Shown here one piece after another: positions 335-12,332 of a DNA stretch of 64,000 nt (position 1 is its first letter; each line of letters opens with the position of its first letter). The position numbers were made by a program, and so were the translations under genes. The notes below the pieces were generated by a model. That model saw nothing but the letters and a program-made list of their open reading frames with translations, had not been told where the DNA came from and did not search any database. Source of the stretch: Nitrospinota bacterium (GTDB lineage Bacteria > Nitrospinota > Nitrospinia > Nitrospinales > VA-1); assembly GCA_038108555.1 (NCBI GenBank), contig JAYNIA010000005.1, positions 1-64,000 on the forward strand, read 5' to 3'.

Positions 335-2299
335 ATGGATATCTCGGCAATTTTCTCGACCAAGGATTTAATGCCTCATGGACAGTGTTTCTTGTGGAAG
401 CCTGATCTTCTGGGACTGCACGTATTATCAGACGCGATTACAGCGCTATCATATTATGTCATGCCTATAGGGTTCTATTACTATATGCAGAGAAAAGAGG
501 AAACGCATTTTAGGGAAATTTTTTATTTCTTCATTACTTTTTTTGTACTCTGTGGAACGAGTCACTTATTTGGAATTATAACGATTTGGAATCCTCAATA
601 TTGGATTGAAGGTTTCATCAAAGCAGGAACAGCAATAACCTCAATTATATCTGCAATACTCATATGGAAAATAATGCCGCAAGCCCTCGCCTTTCCCAGT
701 CCCAAGAAGTTGATTGGAATTAATGAGACGCTTAAAAAAGAAATAAATGAAAAGCAAAGTCTGGCTGATAAATTTAGAATTTTATCTGATCGAAATGAAT
801 TGATTTTAAAATCTGCCGGAGAAGGTATTTATGGGCTAGATATAAATGGAAACACTACTTTTGCAAACCCTGCAGCCGAGCAAATGCTGGGCTACAAATT
901 GAGTGAAATGTTAAATCATACTCAGCACGATTTAATTCATCATACTAAAAAAGAGGGAACTCCTTATGATCGTGAGGATTGCAAAATTTATGCTGCCCTA
1001 AAAGACGGAGTAATTCATCATGTTTCCGATGAGGTCTTTTGGCGAAAAGATGGTACCAGCTTTTCTGTTGAATATTTTTCTACTCCCCAAATAAAGAATG
1101 GGGAAATTAAGGGTGCCGTTGTAACCTTCCAAGATATTACTGAGCGAAAAGTTTCGGAAGAAAAATTAAGATTAAGCGAAGAGAGGTTCCGAACTATATT
1201 TCAGGAGGCTCCTCTCGGCGTTGCATTGATCGACTCCATTACAGGCCACATCTATGAAGTGAACAATCGGTTTGCTGAAATTGAAGGAAGAACAAGAGAG
1301 GAAATGGCGACAATTGACTGGATGAGCATAACTCACCCAGATGATGTTCAGGAAGATTTAGATAATATGGCAGATTTAAATGCCGGAAAAATATCTGGTT
1401 TTAATATGAGTAAGAGGTACATTAAACCTGAGGGTTCCTATGTATGGATCAATTTGACCGTCGCTCCTATTAAAATAAAAGATAAGGGCAATCCGCGTCA
1501 CCTGGCCATGATTGAAGATATAACTGACAAAGTAAAAACCGAATTAGAATTAAAGAAACATAAAAATCATCTTGAAGAATTGGTTGAAGAGAGAACAAAA
1601 GAACTTAAAGAATCACAGGACAAACTTCATCATTCTGACAAACTGGCGAGTCTGGGAAAACTAGTAGGGTCTGTCGCGCATGAGTTTAACAATCCGCTTT
1701 TTGGGGTTACAGGGATAGTTGACCAACTGGGAGGTGAACTTTCCAAAGAGCAGCGAGAGAAGCTATCATCGATAGGAAAAAAAGAATGCTGGCGGATGGC
1801 TGGGATGATCAAAAACCTCCAGAGCTTCTATAAACCTTCAGAAGGAGTTGAGTCTGCCATTCAAATGAGTAAGTTGGTTGAAGATGTTCTTTTGATTATA
1901 GGTAAAGATATCAACCGAAAGGGAATTAATATTCTCCGTAATTTTTCTGATGATGAGGTCCCTATTAAAGCGGTAGAGGACCAGATCAAACAGGTTGTGA
2001 TCAACCTTCTGCAAAACGCCGCTGATGCCATCTCTGGACCTGATGGCGAAATTTATTTGACCCTTCAGCCTGACAGCTCAAACATGACTCTTAAAGTTCA
2101 GGATAATGGTGAAGGTATTCCTGAAGAGAGTATTGGTAAATTATTTGATCCTTTTTTCACTACAAAGGGAATAAAGGGTACAGGCTTAGGGCTTTCTGTC
2201 AGTTACGGAATTGTCAAAAAACATGGTGGGGAAATTTCCGTAGAAAGCGAACCTGGCAAAGGCTCAACTTTTAATTTAACCTTACCCGCCCACAATTAA
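335..2299 (+). CDS. Membrane sensor histidine kinase: ETR1-like ethylene-binding domain, two PAS/PAC domains, HisKA and HATPase
   Basis: N-terminal 3-TM region SDAITALSYYVMP...FVLCGTSH...KAGTAITS; PAS motifs (EGIYGLD..G.TTFANPAAEQMLGY; THPDD); H-box AHEFNNPL; N/G boxes NLLQNA, DNGEGI, FDPFFTTK, GTGLGL. Confidence 0.92.
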   Translation: MDISAIFSTKDLMPHGQCFLWKPDLLGLHVLSDAITALSYYVMPIGFYYYMQRKEETHFREIFYFFITFFVLCGTSHLFGIITIWNPQYWIEGFIKAGTAITSIISAILIWKIMPQALAFPSPKKLIGINETLKKEINEKQSLADKFRILSDRNELILKSAGEGIYGLDINGNTTFANPAAEQMLGYKLSEMLNHTQHDLIHHTKKEGTPYDREDCKIYAALKDGVIHHVSDEVFWRKDGTSFSVEYFSTPQIKNGEIKGAVVTFQDITERKVSEEKLRLSEERFRTIFQEAPLGVALIDSITGHIYEVNNRFAEIEGRTREEMATIDWMSITHPDDVQEDLDNMADLNAGKISGFNMSKRYIKPEGSYVWINLTVAPIKIKDKGNPRHLAMIEDITDKVKTELELKKHKNHLEELVEERTKELKESQDKLHHSDKLASLGKLVGSVAHEFNNPLFGVTGIVDQLGGELSKEQREKLSSIGKKECWRMAGMIKNLQSFYKPSEGVESAIQMSKLVEDVLLIIGKDINRKGINILRNFSDDEVPIKAVEDQIKQVVINLLQNAADAISGPDGEIYLTLQPDSSNMTLKVQDNGEGIPEESIGKLFDPFFTTKGIKGTGLGLSVSYGIVKKHGGEISVESEPGKGSTFNLTLPAHN

Positions 2300-2304
2300 A
2301 TCAA

Positions 2305-2928
2305 ATGAAAAAATATTCCATATTGCTGGTTGATGATGAAGAATCAATTCTTCTAGTACTCAAAGGCTACTTAGAAAAAGAGGGCTATAAAACCACCATT
2401 GCTGAAAGTGGCAATAAAGCTGTTGAAATGATCGAGAAGGGTTATCATTTTGATCTAATTTTTACCGATTTGGTGATGGATGGGATAGATGGAATGGGTG
2501 TATTGAAAGAGGCAAAGAAAGCACATCCTGAAACAATAGTGATGATCCTCACAGGGTATGGTTCTTTGGATACAGCGGTGGAGGCAATGCGATTAGGGGC
2601 TTTTGATTATTTGCAAAAGCCTTGTGAAAAAAGTGAGTTGTTGATGAGAACCCAAAGAGGTATTGACCACCTGGTTCTGAATAGAAAAGTCAAAGCTTAT
2701 GAGAAGATTCTTCCGGTCTGCTGCGTCTGCAAAAAAATTAGGGATGATGATGGCAAAGAACCAGGAACCGGGACATGGAAAGACCCTGATGTTTATCTTG
2801 ATGAAAAAACAGAAATTGATACAAGCCACACCTATTGTGATGAGCACATGGAAGAGCTAAGGAAAGAAATTAAATTAGCCAAAGAAAAACATAAAAAAGA
2901 AAAAGAACATTCGGAGGCGGGCAAGTAA
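2305..2928 (+). CDS. Response regulator with C-terminal Cys/His motif
   Basis: Receiver domain (LLVDDE, FTDLVM, LTGYG, YLQKP), then LPVCCVCKKIRDD...SHTYC; starts 5 nt after the kinase stop. Confidence 0.9.
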   Translation: MKKYSILLVDDEESILLVLKGYLEKEGYKTTIAESGNKAVEMIEKGYHFDLIFTDLVMDGIDGMGVLKEAKKAHPETIVMILTGYGSLDTAVEAMRLGAFDYLQKPCEKSELLMRTQRGIDHLVLNRKVKAYEKILPVCCVCKKIRDDDGKEPGTGTWKDPDVYLDEKTEIDTSHTYCDEHMEELRKEIKLAKEKHKKEKEHSEAGK

Positions 2929-3362: not shown

Positions 3363-4309
3363 ATGAGCACCACTGCCGAACAGTTCCGCAAAATTGATAT
3401 CGAATCGCTCAGTGAAACGGACGACCAAAAGTTCAATTTGTATGTAAAATCCAACGAGGGATTCGTCAAATTCACCGGTACGGAAAAATCGCATCAGGAT
3501 AAAGTCAAACGTATGCTCAAAGCCGGTGAGTTAACTGAAGAACTCTATATCGATGTTAAGGAGCAGGAAGACTATTTCAAACAAATCACAGGAGGCCTCG
3601 CCTCGATCGCATCGGACGATGCCCTGACCCCGCCATCCGGGCCGAGAAAATTTACAATGTGTCCATGGCAATTATGAAGGAGTTTTTTGAAAACAGCTCC
3701 TCAACGAAAATATTAAGATCTGCCGACGAAATTATGGATGCCATGCAGACCTGCCTGGAGGTGACCAATCAGGGATTCGCCCTGCTGGCAAAAACCATGG
3801 TGAAAAACTATCCCGCTTACCTTCATTCGATCAACGTGGGTCTCTACTGCCTGAGTTATGCCGCCAAGAATAAAATGGGGAAAGAAGAAACACAGATTCT
3901 GGCCATTGGAGGTCTATTCCACGATTTGGGATTGACGGCCATCTCTGACGACATCCTCTACAAAAAAGAAAAACTGGATATGGACGAGGTCCAGTGGATG
4001 CGTTCACACACTCAGGAGGGAAGTGAGATCATTAAAGAATTGAAACTTTATAATGATGAAGTGGTTAAAATGGCGGAACAACATCATGAAAGTTTTGATG
4101 GCAAGGGTTATCCCTATGCGCTTGCCAAAGACCAGATTTCCTATTTCTCCCGGATCTACAAGGTGGCCGATGTTTACGAAAGCCTGACTTCGCCCGTGGT
4201 TTACCGCAAAGCCATGAAGCCTTTGGATGCCTTAACCATTATGACCCGCGATATGAAAAGTATGTTTGACCCCAAAGTTTTGCGAAATTTTATCACCCTC
4301 CTGGCCTGA
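3363..4309 (+). pseudogene. HD-GYP cyclic dinucleotide phosphodiesterase, frameshifted near 3628-3631
   Basis: ORFs 3363..3677 and 3659..4309 join if one C is added to CCCC at 3628-3631 (...LTPAIRAEKIYNVSMAIMK...); motifs HSINV, FHDLG, HHE..DGKGYP. Confidence 0.8.
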
Positions 4310-5224: not shown

Positions 5225-6577
5225 CTACCCCTTGGGCTCATAATAATCCAAACCGGAATGGTCGATCACCTTCTCACCCATCAGAATTCTTAATGTGTTT
5301 CTCAGTTTGTCGTCCTGGTCAAACAGGGAATTGACAGGCTTGAGGTCGGGTCGGCATTGGGGTGATTTGAAATAAAAAGACAGCCACTCCTGAATTCCGC
5401 GCATTCCTGCACGGCTGGCCAGATCCAGGAATAACACCAGGTCCAACACCACCGGCGCGGCAAGAATCGAATCTCGGCAAAGGAAATTCACCTTCAATTG
5501 CATTTTCTGTCCCAGCCAGCCCTGGATATCGATATTGTCCCAGCCCTCTTTCGCGTCTCCACGGGGAGGATAATATTCGATGCGGATTTTATGGTAGTAA
5601 TCTCCATACAACTCCGGATAAAGATCGTCCTGGAAAATGCTATCCAGAACCGACCCTTTACTCACTTCTTTGGATCGGAATGAATCCGGATCATCAAGAA
5701 CTTCTCCATCGCGATTACCCAAAATATTGCTGGAGAACCAGCCTTCCATTCCCAGCATTCTCGCTTTTAATCCGGGAGCGATGATCGTTTTCATCAAGGT
5801 CTGGCCGGTTTTGAAATCCTTACCCGCTATTGCGACATTATGTTTTAAAGCCAGCTCCACCATAGCCGGGGTATCGACGGTAAGACTGGGAGACCCATTG
5901 GCAAAGGGGACCCCCATTTTGATTCCTGCATATGCATAGATCATGGACGGCGGGATAATGGCCAGGTTATCTTTGAGTGCCTTTTCAAAACCTTCTATCG
6001 TCTTAAAGGCTTCGTGGTCCATATCTTCCAGATAAACTTCTGTGGACCCGCACCAGCACATGACCAGTCGGTCCAGATTGTGCTGTTTTTTGAAATTTTC
6101 CATATCCTGCATCAACATTTCCGCCAGCTCCATTTTATTGGCGGCTTTTTTCACATTGGGTCCCGACAGGTTTTTTACAAAGGCAGGATCAAAAACAGCA
6201 GACCAGGGTTTGATTTCTTCCAACTGTGTTCGGATCGGCTCCAGTTCCTGTTTATCAATGACTCCACAAGCCAGGGCGGCCTGATAGCAATTGTCGTCAT
6301 AGATATCCCAGCCACCAAAAACAAGATCCTTCAAGGGAGTGAGAGGAACGAAATCCTTTATATAAGGGTATCGGGGATTGTCTCTTTTCCCCAGGCGAAT
6401 ACGAGACATTTGAGTGACCGAGCCAATGGGTTGGCTGAACCCTCCATTGACCAATTGCACCCCGGCTATGAGGGTAGAACTGACGGCACCCATTCCGGGA
6501 AGCAAAACACCCAGTTTCCCCTTTGGGGCTTCAATATCTCGAGCCATTCCATTATATGCATCTGTACTTTCATTCAT
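5225..6577 (-). CDS. ino1: myo-inositol-1-phosphate synthase
   Basis: GMGAVSST, FGGWDI, GSTE, NGSP, GKDFKTGQT, NILGNRDG, DSILAAP motifs. Confidence 0.95.
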   Translation of the reverse strand: MNESTDAYNGMARDIEAPKGKLGVLLPGMGAVSSTLIAGVQLVNGGFSQPIGSVTQMSRIRLGKRDNPRYPYIKDFVPLTPLKDLVFGGWDIYDDNCYQAALACGVIDKQELEPIRTQLEEIKPWSAVFDPAFVKNLSGPNVKKAANKMELAEMLMQDMENFKKQHNLDRLVMCWCGSTEVYLEDMDHEAFKTIEGFEKALKDNLAIIPPSMIYAYAGIKMGVPFANGSPSLTVDTPAMVELALKHNVAIAGKDFKTGQTLMKTIIAPGLKARMLGMEGWFSSNILGNRDGEVLDDPDSFRSKEVSKGSVLDSIFQDDLYPELYGDYYHKIRIEYYPPRGDAKEGWDNIDIQGWLGQKMQLKVNFLCRDSILAAPVVLDLVLFLDLASRAGMRGIQEWLSFYFKSPQCRPDLKPVNSLFDQDDKLRNTLRILMGEKVIDHSGLDYYEPKG

Positions 6578-6806
6578 AATTTGCTGCCTTTACCCTTGAA
6601 ATGTTTTTATTAAAAATTATATTTGTTAAAATGTTTATTTGAGATTGATTGTCAAAAAACAGGCTGGACATAAACAATATATATTACAACACACCAAATA
6701 TTAATAGTAAGTAAATAAATTTATAATAAAAATTACTTTCTTTTTTCCATTTTGAGCCATAGAGGTGTATTGTTTCACCTAATAGACAGTTTTTTTTCAA
6801 ATTTAT

Positions 6807-8030
6807 ATGACCTCAAGCACTGAAAAATCCCTTCCTGTCGCAACGGAAAGAAACTCCTGCGGAGTCCTTTTCCTCAAAAATCCGGGAAAATATGAAAACC
6901 CTGCAGAATGGTACTCTTCAAAAATTGCGGGGGTTCCTTTTATCCTCAGAAACCTCATAACGCTGCAAAGGGCTGATATAAAACCCCTTGCAGTTTTTAT
7001 GGAGGACCCTAATGGAGATTTTAAGCAATCCTTTGAAAAAACCCTACAAGATTCACGGTTACAACAAGCGGTTACCTGGATTGGGAAGATTTCCCAGCTA
7101 AAAGAATGGATTCAAAATAACTCCAACCCGGTTTTTATCTTTAATGGATCTATTCTCCACGACAAAAAACAATTGCACCAACTCATCCATTCAGAAACGC
7201 AAAACAGGAATGAATACATCGCCCCTATTGACCCGGAAAACCTTCAGGATTTACTTTTAGAGGGCCCTGTAAAATCGGCTGCAAGTTCATCTGAATTAAA
7301 AAATTTACCGGTTTATGTTTCGGGTCCCAAAGAAAGGGAAATTTTAACCCCCCAAGATTTTAAAAGTGTCCACGAAGCACAGGTTAAAGGCTCGGGACTG
7401 CATCATGACAGCCCCATCACTCGAATTCTTTCGCGGCCCGCATCCCGTGTGTTAACCCGCTTGTTTTTGAATACACCCATCAGTCCCAACCAGATCACTA
7501 TTATCAGTTTCTTTTTTGGATTGATGTCTGCCTTTCTCTTTTTTCAAGGGTTGTACGAATGCGGAGTCATTGCCTCCATGTTATTGGTTTTATCCACCTG
7601 GATAGATGGGGCTGATGGTGAAATCGCCCGTCTAAAGTTTATGGAATCTGACATTGGAAAAAAACTGGATATCTATTGCGACAACATCATCCATTTTCTG
7701 GTCTTCACTGCCATCGGGTGTGGTGCCTATTTTAAATCAGGTGAAAGCCTGTTTTTATTTCTGGGAGGATTAGCCGGTTTTGGAGGTTTACTATCCTTCT
7801 TCCTGCTCAGCCCCATCCTCCTTGAAAAAAGATCACCGGCTAAACAATTGTTCCATGTCAGCGAACCCGAGCTCGTGGAAAAATTCGCGAATCGGGATTT
7901 TATTCATTTCCTGTTATTGGTTTCTTTAATCGACCAGCTTGAAATATTTATAGCGGTTGCTGCTGTAGGGTCAAATATATTTGCCGGGTATCTGGTCTAT
8001 TCCAGGTTCAATAAACTGAAAACCGTTTGA
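6807..8030 (+). CDS. CDP-alcohol phosphotransferase (DIPPS-like) with degenerate N-terminal nucleotidyltransferase-like domain
   Basis: ISPNQIT; DGADGEIAR...GKKLDIYCD signature; several TM helices; N-terminal KIAGVPFILRNL. Confidence 0.85.
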   Translation: MTSSTEKSLPVATERNSCGVLFLKNPGKYENPAEWYSSKIAGVPFILRNLITLQRADIKPLAVFMEDPNGDFKQSFEKTLQDSRLQQAVTWIGKISQLKEWIQNNSNPVFIFNGSILHDKKQLHQLIHSETQNRNEYIAPIDPENLQDLLLEGPVKSAASSSELKNLPVYVSGPKEREILTPQDFKSVHEAQVKGSGLHHDSPITRILSRPASRVLTRLFLNTPISPNQITIISFFFGLMSAFLFFQGLYECGVIASMLLVLSTWIDGADGEIARLKFMESDIGKKLDIYCDNIIHFLVFTAIGCGAYFKSGESLFLFLGGLAGFGGLLSFFLLSPILLEKRSPAKQLFHVSEPELVEKFANRDFIHFLLLVSLIDQLEIFIAVAAVGSNIFAGYLVYSRFNKLKTV

Positions 8031-8052
8031 GAATTTTTATAGGTTGGATTTT

Positions 8053-8784
8053 TCAGGCGCAGTTTTCAACCAAGCTGGACAGGTACTCCTCAGCCTGCTT
8101 GAAGTTGTTCGGGTCGTCAATGTCACACCAGAAGAGGCCGTTTATGGAAACCGCCCTGGCCTTTCCTTCCTTTGCCAAATAACGGACCCCTCCTGAAAGT
8201 GAGTCATCCCCATCTTTTGCTGAATGTTCAATGGCAGTAAACAGCTCCGGGTTACAAAGGAAAATCCCGGTATCAAAACAATTGTAAGACTCCATGCCTT
8301 TACCAATTTGCTTGATTTGATTTTTTTCCGCCAAAACCCGGGTTACATCATCCATATCTACAAAGGAGTTTTTAAGGTCTTCATCTACAGCCAGTGAAAT
8401 CCCTTTATTTTGGGCAGATTGACGAATCAAAAGACGGGCAATCTCAGGGTCAAAAATATGATCTGCCATCATCAGCAGAAAAGGCTCATTTAAATAAGGT
8501 TTGGCTTTTAATACCGAAATGCCATTTGCCAAAGCCCAATCTTTATTTTCAATGGTCGTAATAGGAATCCCTTTTGTCCGACTCACTTTCTCCAAATGAG
8601 CACGGACACTATCCCCCTTATATCCCACAACCACATAAATATCATCCGCACCCGCTTCCGTAGCCGAATCAATTACTCTCTCAATAAGCGGAGTATTTTT
8701 TAAAGGGATCAATGGTTTCGCTTCAGCAAGGGATCGCAATCGACTGCCTTGCCCAGCTGCAATGATTAGACATTTCATAATCAT
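8053..8784 (-). CDS. NTP transferase, likely CTP:inositol-1-phosphate cytidylyltransferase (IPCT)
   Basis: IIAAGQGSRL..KPL, LLMMADH, VDMDDVTRV, DTGIF, WCDIDD; clustered with ino1. Confidence 0.8.
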   Translation of the reverse strand: MIMKCLIIAAGQGSRLRSLAEAKPLIPLKNTPLIERVIDSATEAGADDIYVVVGYKGDSVRAHLEKVSRTKGIPITTIENKDWALANGISVLKAKPYLNEPFLLMMADHIFDPEIARLLIRQSAQNKGISLAVDEDLKNSFVDMDDVTRVLAEKNQIKQIGKGMESYNCFDTGIFLCNPELFTAIEHSAKDGDDSLSGGVRYLAKEGKARAVSINGLFWCDIDDPNNFKQAEEYLSSLVENCA

Positions 8785-8995
8785 CAGGGATAAAAAGGTT
8801 GGTAAAATCAGGACATATTGTTACATATAGAGAGAACCTCTTCAACTCTTTGTTTTATTGAAATTAGCCCGTATCTTTTCATCGCTCATTTTCTTCGCAG
8901 CCATTTTGGTGGACCCAGAAAATTTTGCCAACCCAGGCGAATTAGGGTATTTAATTCTGCTATTTACCATTCAGTCCTGGTTATTTGAAGTGTTG

Positions 8996-9625
8996 TCAAG
9001 GATGCCAGCGGCGGGCACTTCGAGTAAATTGGAGCCCCCAATAGACCTGAGCCCCAATAGCAGAAGGAGGGAGGATGTACCAAAGCACACCCCCCAGACT
9101 TAACATCAAGACGATGAAGCAAAAATCACTGCGAATCACTCGGGCGTTTAGAACAAAGCGATCCATTTTCGAATCATCTTCCTTCATTGAAGTTTCTTCT
9201 TCAGTCAACTGGCTCGAGTGCGGTTTGGTCCTGTTTTGGTATAGTTCGAGACCATAGTTTATCGTCCCACCAATGCCTGCCAGCAAACCTGACCACCACC
9301 AGATCTGTTGACCCGTAACCGAAGTGGCACCCCAGCCCAGACAAATAAAAAATTCAGCATGAACAATCCAATCCACGAAGGTATCGTAGCGCATCCCGAA
9401 AATACTTCGCATATCCTTGATCCGGGCTATTTCTCCATCACAATTGTCCAGCACATAACAAATCAAAAATAAAATCGACCCCGTAAGAATAGCCAGGTAA
9501 TCACCTCGAAGGCAAACCAACCCTGCCGACAAACCAAAAATCAAACTCAATGTAGTTATTTGATTTGGTGTAATCGGAGTCTCCTTCAAAACCATTGTCA
9601 CGTGATAAGACAAATGCCTGATCAA
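8996..9625 (-). CDS. CDP-alcohol phosphotransferase family protein; true start may lie upstream, near 9697
   Basis: ITPNQIT; DNCDGEIAR...GMRYDTFVD signature; frame stays open upstream of the TTG with no ATG. Confidence 0.85.
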   Translation of the reverse strand: MIRHLSYHVTMVLKETPITPNQITTLSLIFGLSAGLVCLRGDYLAILTGSILFLICYVLDNCDGEIARIKDMRSIFGMRYDTFVDWIVHAEFFICLGWGATSVTGQQIWWWSGLLAGIGGTINYGLELYQNRTKPHSSQLTEEETSMKEDDSKMDRFVLNARVIRSDFCFIVLMLSLGGVLWYILPPSAIGAQVYWGLQFTRSARRWHP

Positions 9626-10502: not shown

Positions 10503-12332
10503 ATGCCATTAAGAATTGCACTTGTAAATATGCCCTTTGGGTTCCATATATATCCCTCAATCCAATTGGGCACCCTTACCACTTTGTTTAAAGCAAAAGG
10601 ATGTGCGGTAAAGAGCCATTATCTAAACCTTTATTTTGCGCATCAACTAGGGTTGCCTGTTTACAACCAACTCTGTGAGAAAAGATTCCTGGTGGGAGAG
10701 TGGCTTTTTTCGCACATCCTTTTTGGGGATAACCCAAAAAACCTGGACTATCCAAATCATTTTGCCCCTCATATAGATGAAATTTGCCAATCCATTGACA
10801 GGCCTAAAGAATTTTTATTGGATGTAAAAACCAAAATGGTCCCGGAATTCCTTGAATGGTGCCGGGATGCGGGCAAATGGGAAGACTTCGATGTCGTGGG
10901 TTTTTCTTCCACCTTCAATCAAAACATTGCCAGTTTGACCCTGGCAAAAATGATCAAAGAAAAATTTCCACATATTAAAATACTTTTTGGCGGTTCCAAT
11001 TTTGAATCCGAGATGGGCCTTGAATATTTTCGAGTCTCCCCCTGGGTGGATTACGTTGTTCCGGGAGAAGCAGAAGATATTTTACCCAACCTGGTCGATT
11101 ATCTGGAAAAAGGGGGCCCGGTTCCCAAAGGGGTTATTCATCGTTGTGAAGGGAAAGTCCTTTATGAAGAACCGGAAGCCATGTTCGGGAATTTTACCGA
11201 ATATAAAGCGCCTGACTATCAGGACTTTTTCGATCAACTCAGGGAAATCGATCCTGGCTCTTCTCTGTTGGAAAATCCAGTCATTCTATATGAAACCGCA
11301 AGAGGTTGCTGGTGGGGAGAAAAGCATCATTGCACATTTTGTGGATTGAACGCCAACACGATGAAGTTCAGGGCCAAGCCGATGGAACAGGTTCACACCG
11401 ATCTGGCTGAACTCTCACAAAAACATGACTCGTTTCGGTTTCGTCTTGTCGACAATATTCTGGAAATGAAATACATCGATGGGGTTTTTGGAAATCTGGC
11501 AGAAAAAAATTTTGATTTACAGTTTTTCATCGAAGTAAAAAGCAACCTGACCAAGAAACAAATTAAAACATTGGCTCATGGCGGAGCAAAAGTTATTCAA
11601 CCGGGAATTGAAAGCTTCAGCACAAATCAACTCCAGGAAATGGATAAAGGAGTTCGACCGATTCAAAACATCCTCTGCATGAAATGGTCAATGTATTACG
11701 GCATCGAAGTCAACTGGAACATTCTCATTGGGTTCCCCGGTGAAACCAACGAAGACTATCGACAACAAATCGACTTGATTAAACTTTTGTTCCATCTGCC
11801 ACCCCCGGAATGTGTGGGAGACCTATGGCTCGAAAGGTTCAGTCCTTACCATATGCGACCTGAAGATTATGGGGTGACGATCACGGCACCTGGCGAAGCG
11901 TATCCCTATGTTTATGACGATCCCAAAATAGATCATATGAAAATCGCCTACGATTTTGAATTCGAAACTTCAAATCAAATTGATCCTGCACTCAAGCAGG
12001 AGTTGTACCAAGTGGCAGCGGAATGGAAAAGGCGGCACCAGTCAGAACAGCTCCCTTTCCTGATTTTCACCAAGTCTATGGATTTCGTAAAAGTCTATGA
12101 TGACCGGACCCTGCAATCGACACAGATTCGACTTGAAGGTGCGGCAGCCAGTGCATTTGTTTTTTGCAACGAAGCTGCAAAAACCATCGATCAAATTAAA
12201 GAACATTTGGCGGAACAGAACATTGAGGGCTCTGCTGAAGAGGCGATTGCTTTCCTTGAAGGAAAAGGACTTGTATATGGCGAACGTGGCAAATACCTGA
12301 ACCTCGCTTTACCCCATAATTCAAATTTATAA
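10503..12332 (+). CDS. B12-binding radical SAM C-methyltransferase, RiPP-maturation (TIGR03975-like) family
   Basis: LVNMPF..PSIQLGTL; VVGFSSTFNQ; GGSN; ETARGCWWGEKHHCTFCGLN (CX7CX2C); IQPGIES; WNILIGFPGE; LERFSPY. Confidence 0.88.
   Translation: MPLRIALVNMPFGFHIYPSIQLGTLTTLFKAKGCAVKSHYLNLYFAHQLGLPVYNQLCEKRFLVGEWLFSHILFGDNPKNLDYPNHFAPHIDEICQSIDRPKEFLLDVKTKMVPEFLEWCRDAGKWEDFDVVGFSSTFNQNIASLTLAKMIKEKFPHIKILFGGSNFESEMGLEYFRVSPWVDYVVPGEAEDILPNLVDYLEKGGPVPKGVIHRCEGKVLYEEPEAMFGNFTEYKAPDYQDFFDQLREIDPGSSLLENPVILYETARGCWWGEKHHCTFCGLNANTMKFRAKPMEQVHTDLAELSQKHDSFRFRLVDNILEMKYIDGVFGNLAEKNFDLQFFIEVKSNLTKKQIKTLAHGGAKVIQPGIESFSTNQLQEMDKGVRPIQNILCMKWSMYYGIEVNWNILIGFPGETNEDYRQQIDLIKLLFHLPPPECVGDLWLERFSPYHMRPEDYGVTITAPGEAYPYVYDDPKIDHMKIAYDFEFETSNQIDPALKQELYQVAAEWKRRHQSEQLPFLIFTKSMDFVKVYDDRTLQSTQIRLEGAAASAFVFCNEAAKTIDQIKEHLAEQNIEGSAEEAIAFLEGKGLVYGERGKYLNLALPHNSNL

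Follow-up and report, generated by a model that had tools for sequence, protein, structure and literature searches.

An apparently rebuilt ETR1-type domain with predicted copper ligands on a PAS histidine kinase of a likely Nitrospinota nitrite oxidiser

In ETR1, an Arabidopsis thaliana receptor for ethylene, residues I35, P36, I62, C65 and H69 are named as essential to ethylene binding in the available portions of the literature. D25 is also required according to the accessible text of PMC11819568, which equates D35, C75, H79 and K98 of the bacterial receptor AzoEtr1 with D25, C65, H69 and K91 of ETR1. The available excerpts also state that Y32A and I62A reduce binding, that in a model of a tomato receptor the bottom of the pocket is made by the I62 equivalent, that the Asp-His pair is 2.8 A apart in an ETR1 model and that etr1-4 plants are ethylene-insensitive. 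Natural receptors with Asn at Asp25 represent 3.67% of 1,221 sequences in the accessible sections of PMC10266040 and PMC11971883, where lower affinity and faster release are proposed for them; D25N is described there as negative in the usual binding assay, still signalling and about 100-fold lower in affinity. The ETR1 mutant data are single changes in the plant protein, the standard assay misses fast-releasing binders, and the determinants of the gas pocket are known mainly from such single mutants, no structure of an ethylene-binding domain having been found in the PDB. Further background on the family is contained in the available parts of PMC6586836, PMC8879215, PMC6913735, PMC10348052, PMC9603746 and PMC5285503. 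Literature searches found nothing on ethylene receptors in Nitrospina (papers combining Nitrospina and ethylene were not on receptors by title or start of abstract), nothing relevant on an I62F or Ile62 ethylene-binding variant, which tables or supplements of subscription papers may list, and nothing on CO and propylene.

The stretch of DNA analysed, called here the window, comprises the first 64,000 nucleotides of a contig from a 2.9 Mb genome, 92% complete, with one ETR1_N domain. The features discussed are listed below, with changes written as family consensus residue first and clade residue last.

335 to 2299, forward strand: sensor histidine kinase gene, 654 aa, formed by ETR1_N, linker, PAS, PAS, HisKA and HATPase_c
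407 to 691, forward strand: ETR1_N three-helix membrane domain, residues 25-119 (Pfam PF25487, AlphaFold2)
431 to 433, forward strand: D33, equivalent to ETR1 D25 and kept; touches K96 of the partner subunit in the dimer model
452 to 466, forward strand: Y40 and P44, kept (ETR1 Y32 and P36), with M43 (461-463) in place of ETR1 I35
461 to 544, forward strand: apparently rebuilt segment, residues 43-70, with I43M, L47F, F50Y, V51M, R54K, D56E, G67I and I70F
542 to 544, forward strand: F70 (codon TTT) at the ETR1 I62 position
551 to 565, forward strand: C73 and H77, predicted Cu(I) ligands (ETR1 C65 and H69), with S76 instead of the usual Thr
620 to 652, forward strand: helix-3 motif K96-x-x-T99-A100-x-x-S103, kept, followed by the clade-fixed S106 where Thr is usual
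794 to 1150, forward strand: PAS domain 1, about residues 154-272
1175 to 1552, forward strand: PAS domain 2, residues 281-406, also matched by TIGR00229
1652 to 2290, forward strand: kinase core, HisKA and HATPase_c (Pfam, boxes in the translation)
2305 to 2928, forward strand: response regulator, 207 aa, receiver at residues 6-115 with D55, T83 and K105; begins 5 bases past the kinase stop

The kinase ORF (translated span 335-2296) opens with a domain matched by the ETR1_N profile at E 3.2e-30 and 104.7 bits, against a curated cut-off of 27, over profile positions 2-96 of 97. This places it within the family and confirms the earlier note, made from the sequence alone, in its claim of an ETR1-type domain on a PAS kinase. 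Its two PAS domains and adjacent regulator were likewise identified, by Pfam matches and the 5-base gap. All the motifs of a two-component pair are present: the phospho-His box with H449 (1679-1681), the N, G1, F and G2 boxes of HATPase_c and the receiver Asp, Thr and Lys. A PAS cofactor was sought through PDB matches, and these were weak ones only (PA0861, DcuS). A close paralogue of PAS domain 1, with 64-78% identity, was identified at G000:C33:1053-1470 aligned in two frames, which suggests a frameshift in another kinase gene.

The register to ETR1 was set through AzoEtr1 (a 525-aa ORF from a plasmid of Azospirillum brasilense Sp7, with D35, I45, P46, I72, C75, H79 and K98). Both domains align at 42% identity over 120 residues, and since this alignment is gap-free M43 falls at ETR1 I35 and F70 at I62, as had been proposed. 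The residues D33, Y40, P44, C73 and H77 and the KxxTAxxS pattern are present in the translation as originally named, and C73 and H77 are in register with C75 and H79 of AzoEtr1. The constant +8 offset to ETR1 numbering holds for helices 1 and 2 and fails in helix 3, where K96 against K91 gives +5. The equivalents of the Cys65/His69 ligands and of the Asp25/Lys91 relay are therefore retained in the AzoEtr1 register, and S103 and P115 are kept along with K96. At codon level the motif is present a single time in the window and in none of 100 shuffled versions. From the seven binding residues (D25, Y32, I35, P36, I62, C65 and H69) five are conserved, I35 being Met and I62 being Phe, and because of these two replacements the domain is not to be filed as a functional ethylene receptor. 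The case is a warning that a Pfam match plus the Cys/His pair is insufficient to call a bacterial ethylene receptor.

Judged by sequence counts, the family is common and already characterised in bacteria, and the Met plus Phe variant is rare. The ETR1_N domain was identified in 7,227 cluster representatives at E 0.001 or better and AzoEtr1 has the same architecture, so that the phrase "undescribed gas-sensing system" had overstated the case. A homologue search by full-length alignment gave long PAS kinases, and a domain-score filter (pairwise score >120) set which rows counted; the resulting set comprises 265 distinct domain rows including the query and favours the query's residues because the rows are its nearest relatives. 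C73 and H77 are found in all 265 rows, D33 in 263, K96 in 261 and the complete set of seven residues in 241. Position 70 is occupied by Ile in 256 rows, Phe in 5 and Val in 4, position 43 by Ile in 252 and Met in 13, and the Met43 and Phe70 pair appears in 4. Met at I35 with the normal Ile62 was identified in the other nine (P0011, P0164, P0365, P0375, P0386, P0389, P0390, P0395 and P0096), and since these rows pair it with Ile62, Met at I35 alone seems tolerated.

A survey of the I62 equivalent in close homologues had been suggested, and Phe proved rare beyond these rows too. A Phe codon pattern, in which D, Y, P, F-F, C-G, H and W all had to stand in register, was found at 2 places in 185,579 species genomes (Kamptonema and an Acidobacteriota), a set from which the host's own genome may be left out, and gave 1 match in JGI metagenomes; Ile35 is retained in all three. 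With Ile in its place the pattern was identified in 95 of 401 genomes from cyanobacteria and 6 of 401 from acidobacteria. Phe62/Ile35 variants are located at L009 4001-4159, L010 292-450 and L011 1788-1946. The Kamptonema copy is one among nine ETR1_N copies in that genome, and two related high-GC Phe62 proteins (one from Acidobacteriota) also alter the Thr pair preceding the His. Within the host phylum the domain is present in 6 of 120 genomes, the other full-length copies having Ile at both sites. Two proteins of this phylum depart elsewhere: L005 has Ala at the conserved Pro36, and L007 has Glu at Asp25, Phe at Tyr32 and Ser at Pro36.

The Met plus Phe rows are P0001, P0002/P0003/P0160/P0161 (a single row), P0004 and P0012/P0162, representing four distinct domains. 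They form one branch with support 100/99 (IQ-TREE, 54 rows, 24 chosen and 30 random), and the stem of this clade is the longest inner stem, 0.47, in a FastTree tree of about 270 rows. A clade-specific profile search gave no additional members, scores dropping from 262 to 164 bits. Only P0160 carries a taxon label, Nitrospinota, and its domain is 83% identical. For an origin from canonical receptors of the same phylum p-AU was 0.34, a value by which descent is neither supported nor rejected.

Ten changes are common to all clade members but seldom found outside it: I43M, L47F, F50Y, V51M, R54K, D56E, G67I, I70F, T76S and T106S. Seven of them lie at positions at least 90% conserved in the family, and at the 34 sites with this conservation the clade members differ 7 to 10 times and the 261 other domains 0 to 6 times. 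The change had been described as a natural etr1-4-like I62F. The etr1-4 allele is reportedly I62F and is said to lose ethylene binding; Phe is indeed found at this position, but the domain is not a single-residue mimic and the ten clade-fixed changes had been missed. Because of these ten changes the plant allele predicts the behaviour of the domain poorly, and compensation is possible. The best identity to any non-clade domain is 39% over residues 42-72, against 81% over 11-41 and 64% over 73-122. Conserved sites were changed in 5 of 9 cases within residues 42-72 and in 2 of 25 outside (p 0.007, for a stretch picked post hoc).

It was considered whether the domain could be decaying, non-functional and drifting in an AT-rich accessory locus. 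The GC content of the kinase gene (38.8% versus 42.6% for the genome, within the lowest 5-7% of long ORFs) would fit with this, as would the occurrence of the domain in only 2 of 70 genomes of the host family besides the host (G105 and G078). Decay is nevertheless very improbable, given that the highly conserved sites are nearly frozen inside the clade, with variation at 3 of 34 versus 46 of 76 other sites (p 2e-7), that P0001 and P0002 are 83% identical in the domain versus 69% in PAS1, 78% in PAS2 and 76% in the ATPase domain, and that the domain is retained on four kinase architectures. One of these, P0004, has the domain joined to a kinase-receiver without PAS, and ETR1_N is therefore the sole recognisable input there. 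AT-coded residues are frequent in the clade domains (0.36-0.39 versus 0.26 +/- 0.04), so some of the changes may be drift. AT bias as the whole explanation was rejected: in the other members AT-richness does not predict deviation (rho 0.08, p 0.18), the 15 most AT-residue-rich other domains all have Ile35 and Ile62, and I35M and I62F are GC-neutral codon changes. Because ten changes are fixed and the conserved positions are nearly frozen, the domain is best described from its sequence as a rebuilt and still constrained module, neither a lone etr1-4-like mutation nor a product of decay. Such a conserved-but-different pattern is the usual sign of a shifted function, although compensation can give it too.

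The AlphaFold2 prediction, from a 136-row alignment, contains three membrane helices at residues 23-53, 60-85 and 89-119 (mean pLDDT 89.5, pTM 0.74). A two-copy model with zinc standing in for copper scored 0.79, against 0.00 for the best of 3 controls, a mark that in calibration 20 of 30 solved homodimers attained, as did 1 of 23 single chains; the dimer runs concur in at least 94% of contacts with pLDDT at least 83. In the modelled dimer helix 1 packs against helix 3 of the partner and D33 contacts K96, which agrees with the bridge between Asp and Lys that has been proposed for ETR1. The residues listed for this interface include clade sites 43, 47, 50, 54 and 106 but neither 67 nor 70. An antiparallel hairpin with D33 paired to H77 would place Y40 opposite F70, M43 opposite I67 and F47 opposite residue 63. 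From this hairpin register and the interface sites, the clade changes would touch the floor of the pocket as well as the route to helix 3. By standard residue volumes they mostly increase side-chain volume near the copper site. Met43 was also considered as a copper ligand and this was judged unlikely, the residue being about ten residues from D33 by the hairpin register. A sequence search of the PDB gave no relative and only chance GPCR matches (E at least 0.13), and Foldseek against the PDB gave nothing at E 0.001 or better.

The explanation preferred here, with moderate confidence, is a Cu(I) sensor in which the domain is still the input, the pocket floor is re-packed and gas binding is weakened or changed relative to ETR1. 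C73 and H77 would hold Cu(I) in the three-helix domain, which would still control the kinase, and the larger side chains brought in by the G-to-I, I-to-F and L-to-F changes would occupy or remodel the space beneath the copper, so that ethylene would be bound only weakly or another small Cu(I) ligand would be bound instead. Ligand binding would shift helix 3, and the signal would run through the linker and both PAS domains to H449, from which phosphate would pass to D55 of the adjoining regulator. Retuning, whether to copper or to some other ligand, is plausible and would agree with the way the sites are conserved. The more specific proposal, that in a small lineage of nitrite oxidisers the fold of the ethylene receptor now serves as a Cu(I) sensor for a smaller gas such as CO, a volatile sulfur compound or nitrile, or copper itself, is tentative and considered somewhat unlikely. 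Co-occurring changes may also restore a normal ethylene pocket, a point against the preferred explanation.

In its full form this last option is an ordinary high-affinity ethylene receptor in which F70 is compensated by M43, F47, I67 and S76 with the pocket shape kept. It would agree with the retention of 5 of 7 binding residues plus K96, S103 and P115, with the pairing of changes across the inferred hairpin as compensations would pair, and with the 4 of 10 changes directed towards AT-rich codons and none towards GC. Canonical receptors in other genomes of the host phylum also point this way, since they indicate that ethylene-type sensing exists in the lineage. It is unlikely all the same: the ten fixed changes, seven at highly conserved sites, exceed those of all 261 other domains, Phe62 is nearly absent outside the clade, and the failure of AT-richness to predict deviation, with both Ile kept in AT-rich relatives, argues against a compositional origin.

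Under the preferred reading of a Cu(I) sensor with altered gas binding, the output would be the regulator encoded next to the kinase. No DNA-binding domain was found in it by domain search, and it would probably act on a protein partner. Its C-terminal tail contains C139-x-x-C142, H175, C178 and H181 and may bind metal; the tail belongs to no Pfam family, and its Atlas matches were unnamed clusters at 0.86, a lead only. The CxxC ... HxxCxxH arrangement (window 2707-2847) is present a single time in the genome and is shared by the regulators from G093, G070, G068 and G060. The kinase-regulator pairing recurs in these same four relatives; the input is PAS only in G093 (same genus), a receiver together with PAS in G070, and a different membrane sensor in G068 and in G060. 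The cassette was identified at differing loci with differing input domains (L024, L025, L026 and L027). Taken together, the cassette data suggest frequent sensor swapping.

The upstream side of the kinase gene terminates at the contig edge. The downstream genes encode an HD-domain protein, an inositol-phosphate synthase and CDP-alcohol transferases and give no hint of the ligand. Scans for promoters and terminators gave counts no higher than chance (7 versus 8.8 and 3 versus 3.1). The HD-domain gene (window 3363-4309) is broken into two ORFs, of 104 and 216 aa, with a frame change near 3627 in a C run, where a low-depth contig of run X4 has one extra C and run X2 equals the window; strain polymorphism or error may be responsible. 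An inositol-1-phosphate synthase, two CDP-alcohol phosphatidyltransferases and a nucleotidyltransferase are clustered at window 5225-9625, resembling a di-myo-inositol-phosphate or inositol-lipid pathway, and a B12-binding radical SAM protein of 609 aa is encoded at window 10503-12332.

The neighbourhood bears on a further alternative, in which the domain is gas-blind: the pocket would be filled, and the domain would either report Cu(I) occupancy or redox state or stand in an etr1-4-like locked state with sensing left to PAS. The side-chain volume added near the copper site, the retained copper ligands, the ethylene insensitivity of etr1-4 plants and the PAS-only kinase-regulator pair of the same-genus relative would agree with it. 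A mere locked anchor is however hard to reconcile with P0004, and the ORFs as far as base 12,332 include none recognised as a gene for copper transport or resistance; M43 would also probably be too distant to add a copper ligand. A low probability is accordingly given to this alternative.

The genome encodes a 1155-aa protein matching NxrA of PDB 7b04 with 1705 bits. From this match and the Nitrospinota label of P0160, the host is likely a Nitrospinota nitrite oxidiser, and a probable nitrite oxidiser had been named as host in the earlier note. Four estuary metagenome runs of one study contain 88-98% of sampled words, and the source run may be among them, while no RNA data set was listed as containing the sequence; two small-share runs (X5 and X6) gave divergent fragments only and no habitat is named for them. 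Two further samples of that study yielded contigs covering the domain, with 2 differing letters over 2361 bases and 1 over 1059, and these, along with three other distinct domains with F70, rule out an assembly error at this residue. In the 92% complete genome no match was found for CoxL, nor for a soluble di-iron monooxygenase in a search whose control was also silent.

The clade amounts to an experiment of nature, with the two essential isoleucines replaced and the copper site preserved, and it could show how the ethylene-receptor fold switches ligand. If ethylene is still bound, the accompanying changes would be natural suppressors of an etr1-4-type change and would map the pocket. If it is not, this would be a candidate for the first ligand switch in the family, with an unknown cue for estuarine nitrite oxidisers. 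If the different-ligand reading is true, no earlier member of the ETR1 family would have had a natural ligand other than ethylene, and the domain would be carried on a kinase cassette with swappable input.

Among known systems, AzoEtr1/AzoRR-Etr1 of A. brasilense Sp7, as described in the available text of PMC11819568, resembles this locus in its N-terminal three-helix domain, PAS, histidine kinase and regulator directly downstream, and shares the D, Y, P, C, H and K positions with the window domain. AzoEtr1 keeps all seven residues, including I45 and I72, and binds ethylene according to the same text, whereas the window domain has two of them changed and eight more clade-fixed changes; it also has one PAS where the window kinase has two, and the Cys/His tail of the window regulator is unlike that system. 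Arabidopsis ETR1 shares the Cys/His copper pair, the Asp-Lys relay and a predicted homodimer, but has GAF where the window kinase has PAS with a bacterial two-component output. Phe at 62 is as reported for etr1-4, here within a co-evolved background with Met at 35 and Ile at 59. SynEtr1 (slr1212, Synechocystis PCC 6803) and GeiEtr1/2 (PMC6682694) are likewise bacterial receptors with ETR1_N on a histidine kinase; compared by description in the available text, they carry GAF or light-sensing domains, and GeiEtr1/2 are stated to keep all seven residues. The Asp25Asn variants are a natural precedent for change at a "required" residue and alter the His-polarising Asp, whereas the window domain keeps this Asp and appears rebuilt in the hydrophobic floor and cytoplasmic face. 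Finally, the canonical ETR1_N kinases that the phylum also contains (L002, L004 and L005) include the best non-clade row, L004, with 81% over residues 11-41, and unlike the window domain all three keep Ile35 and Ile62.
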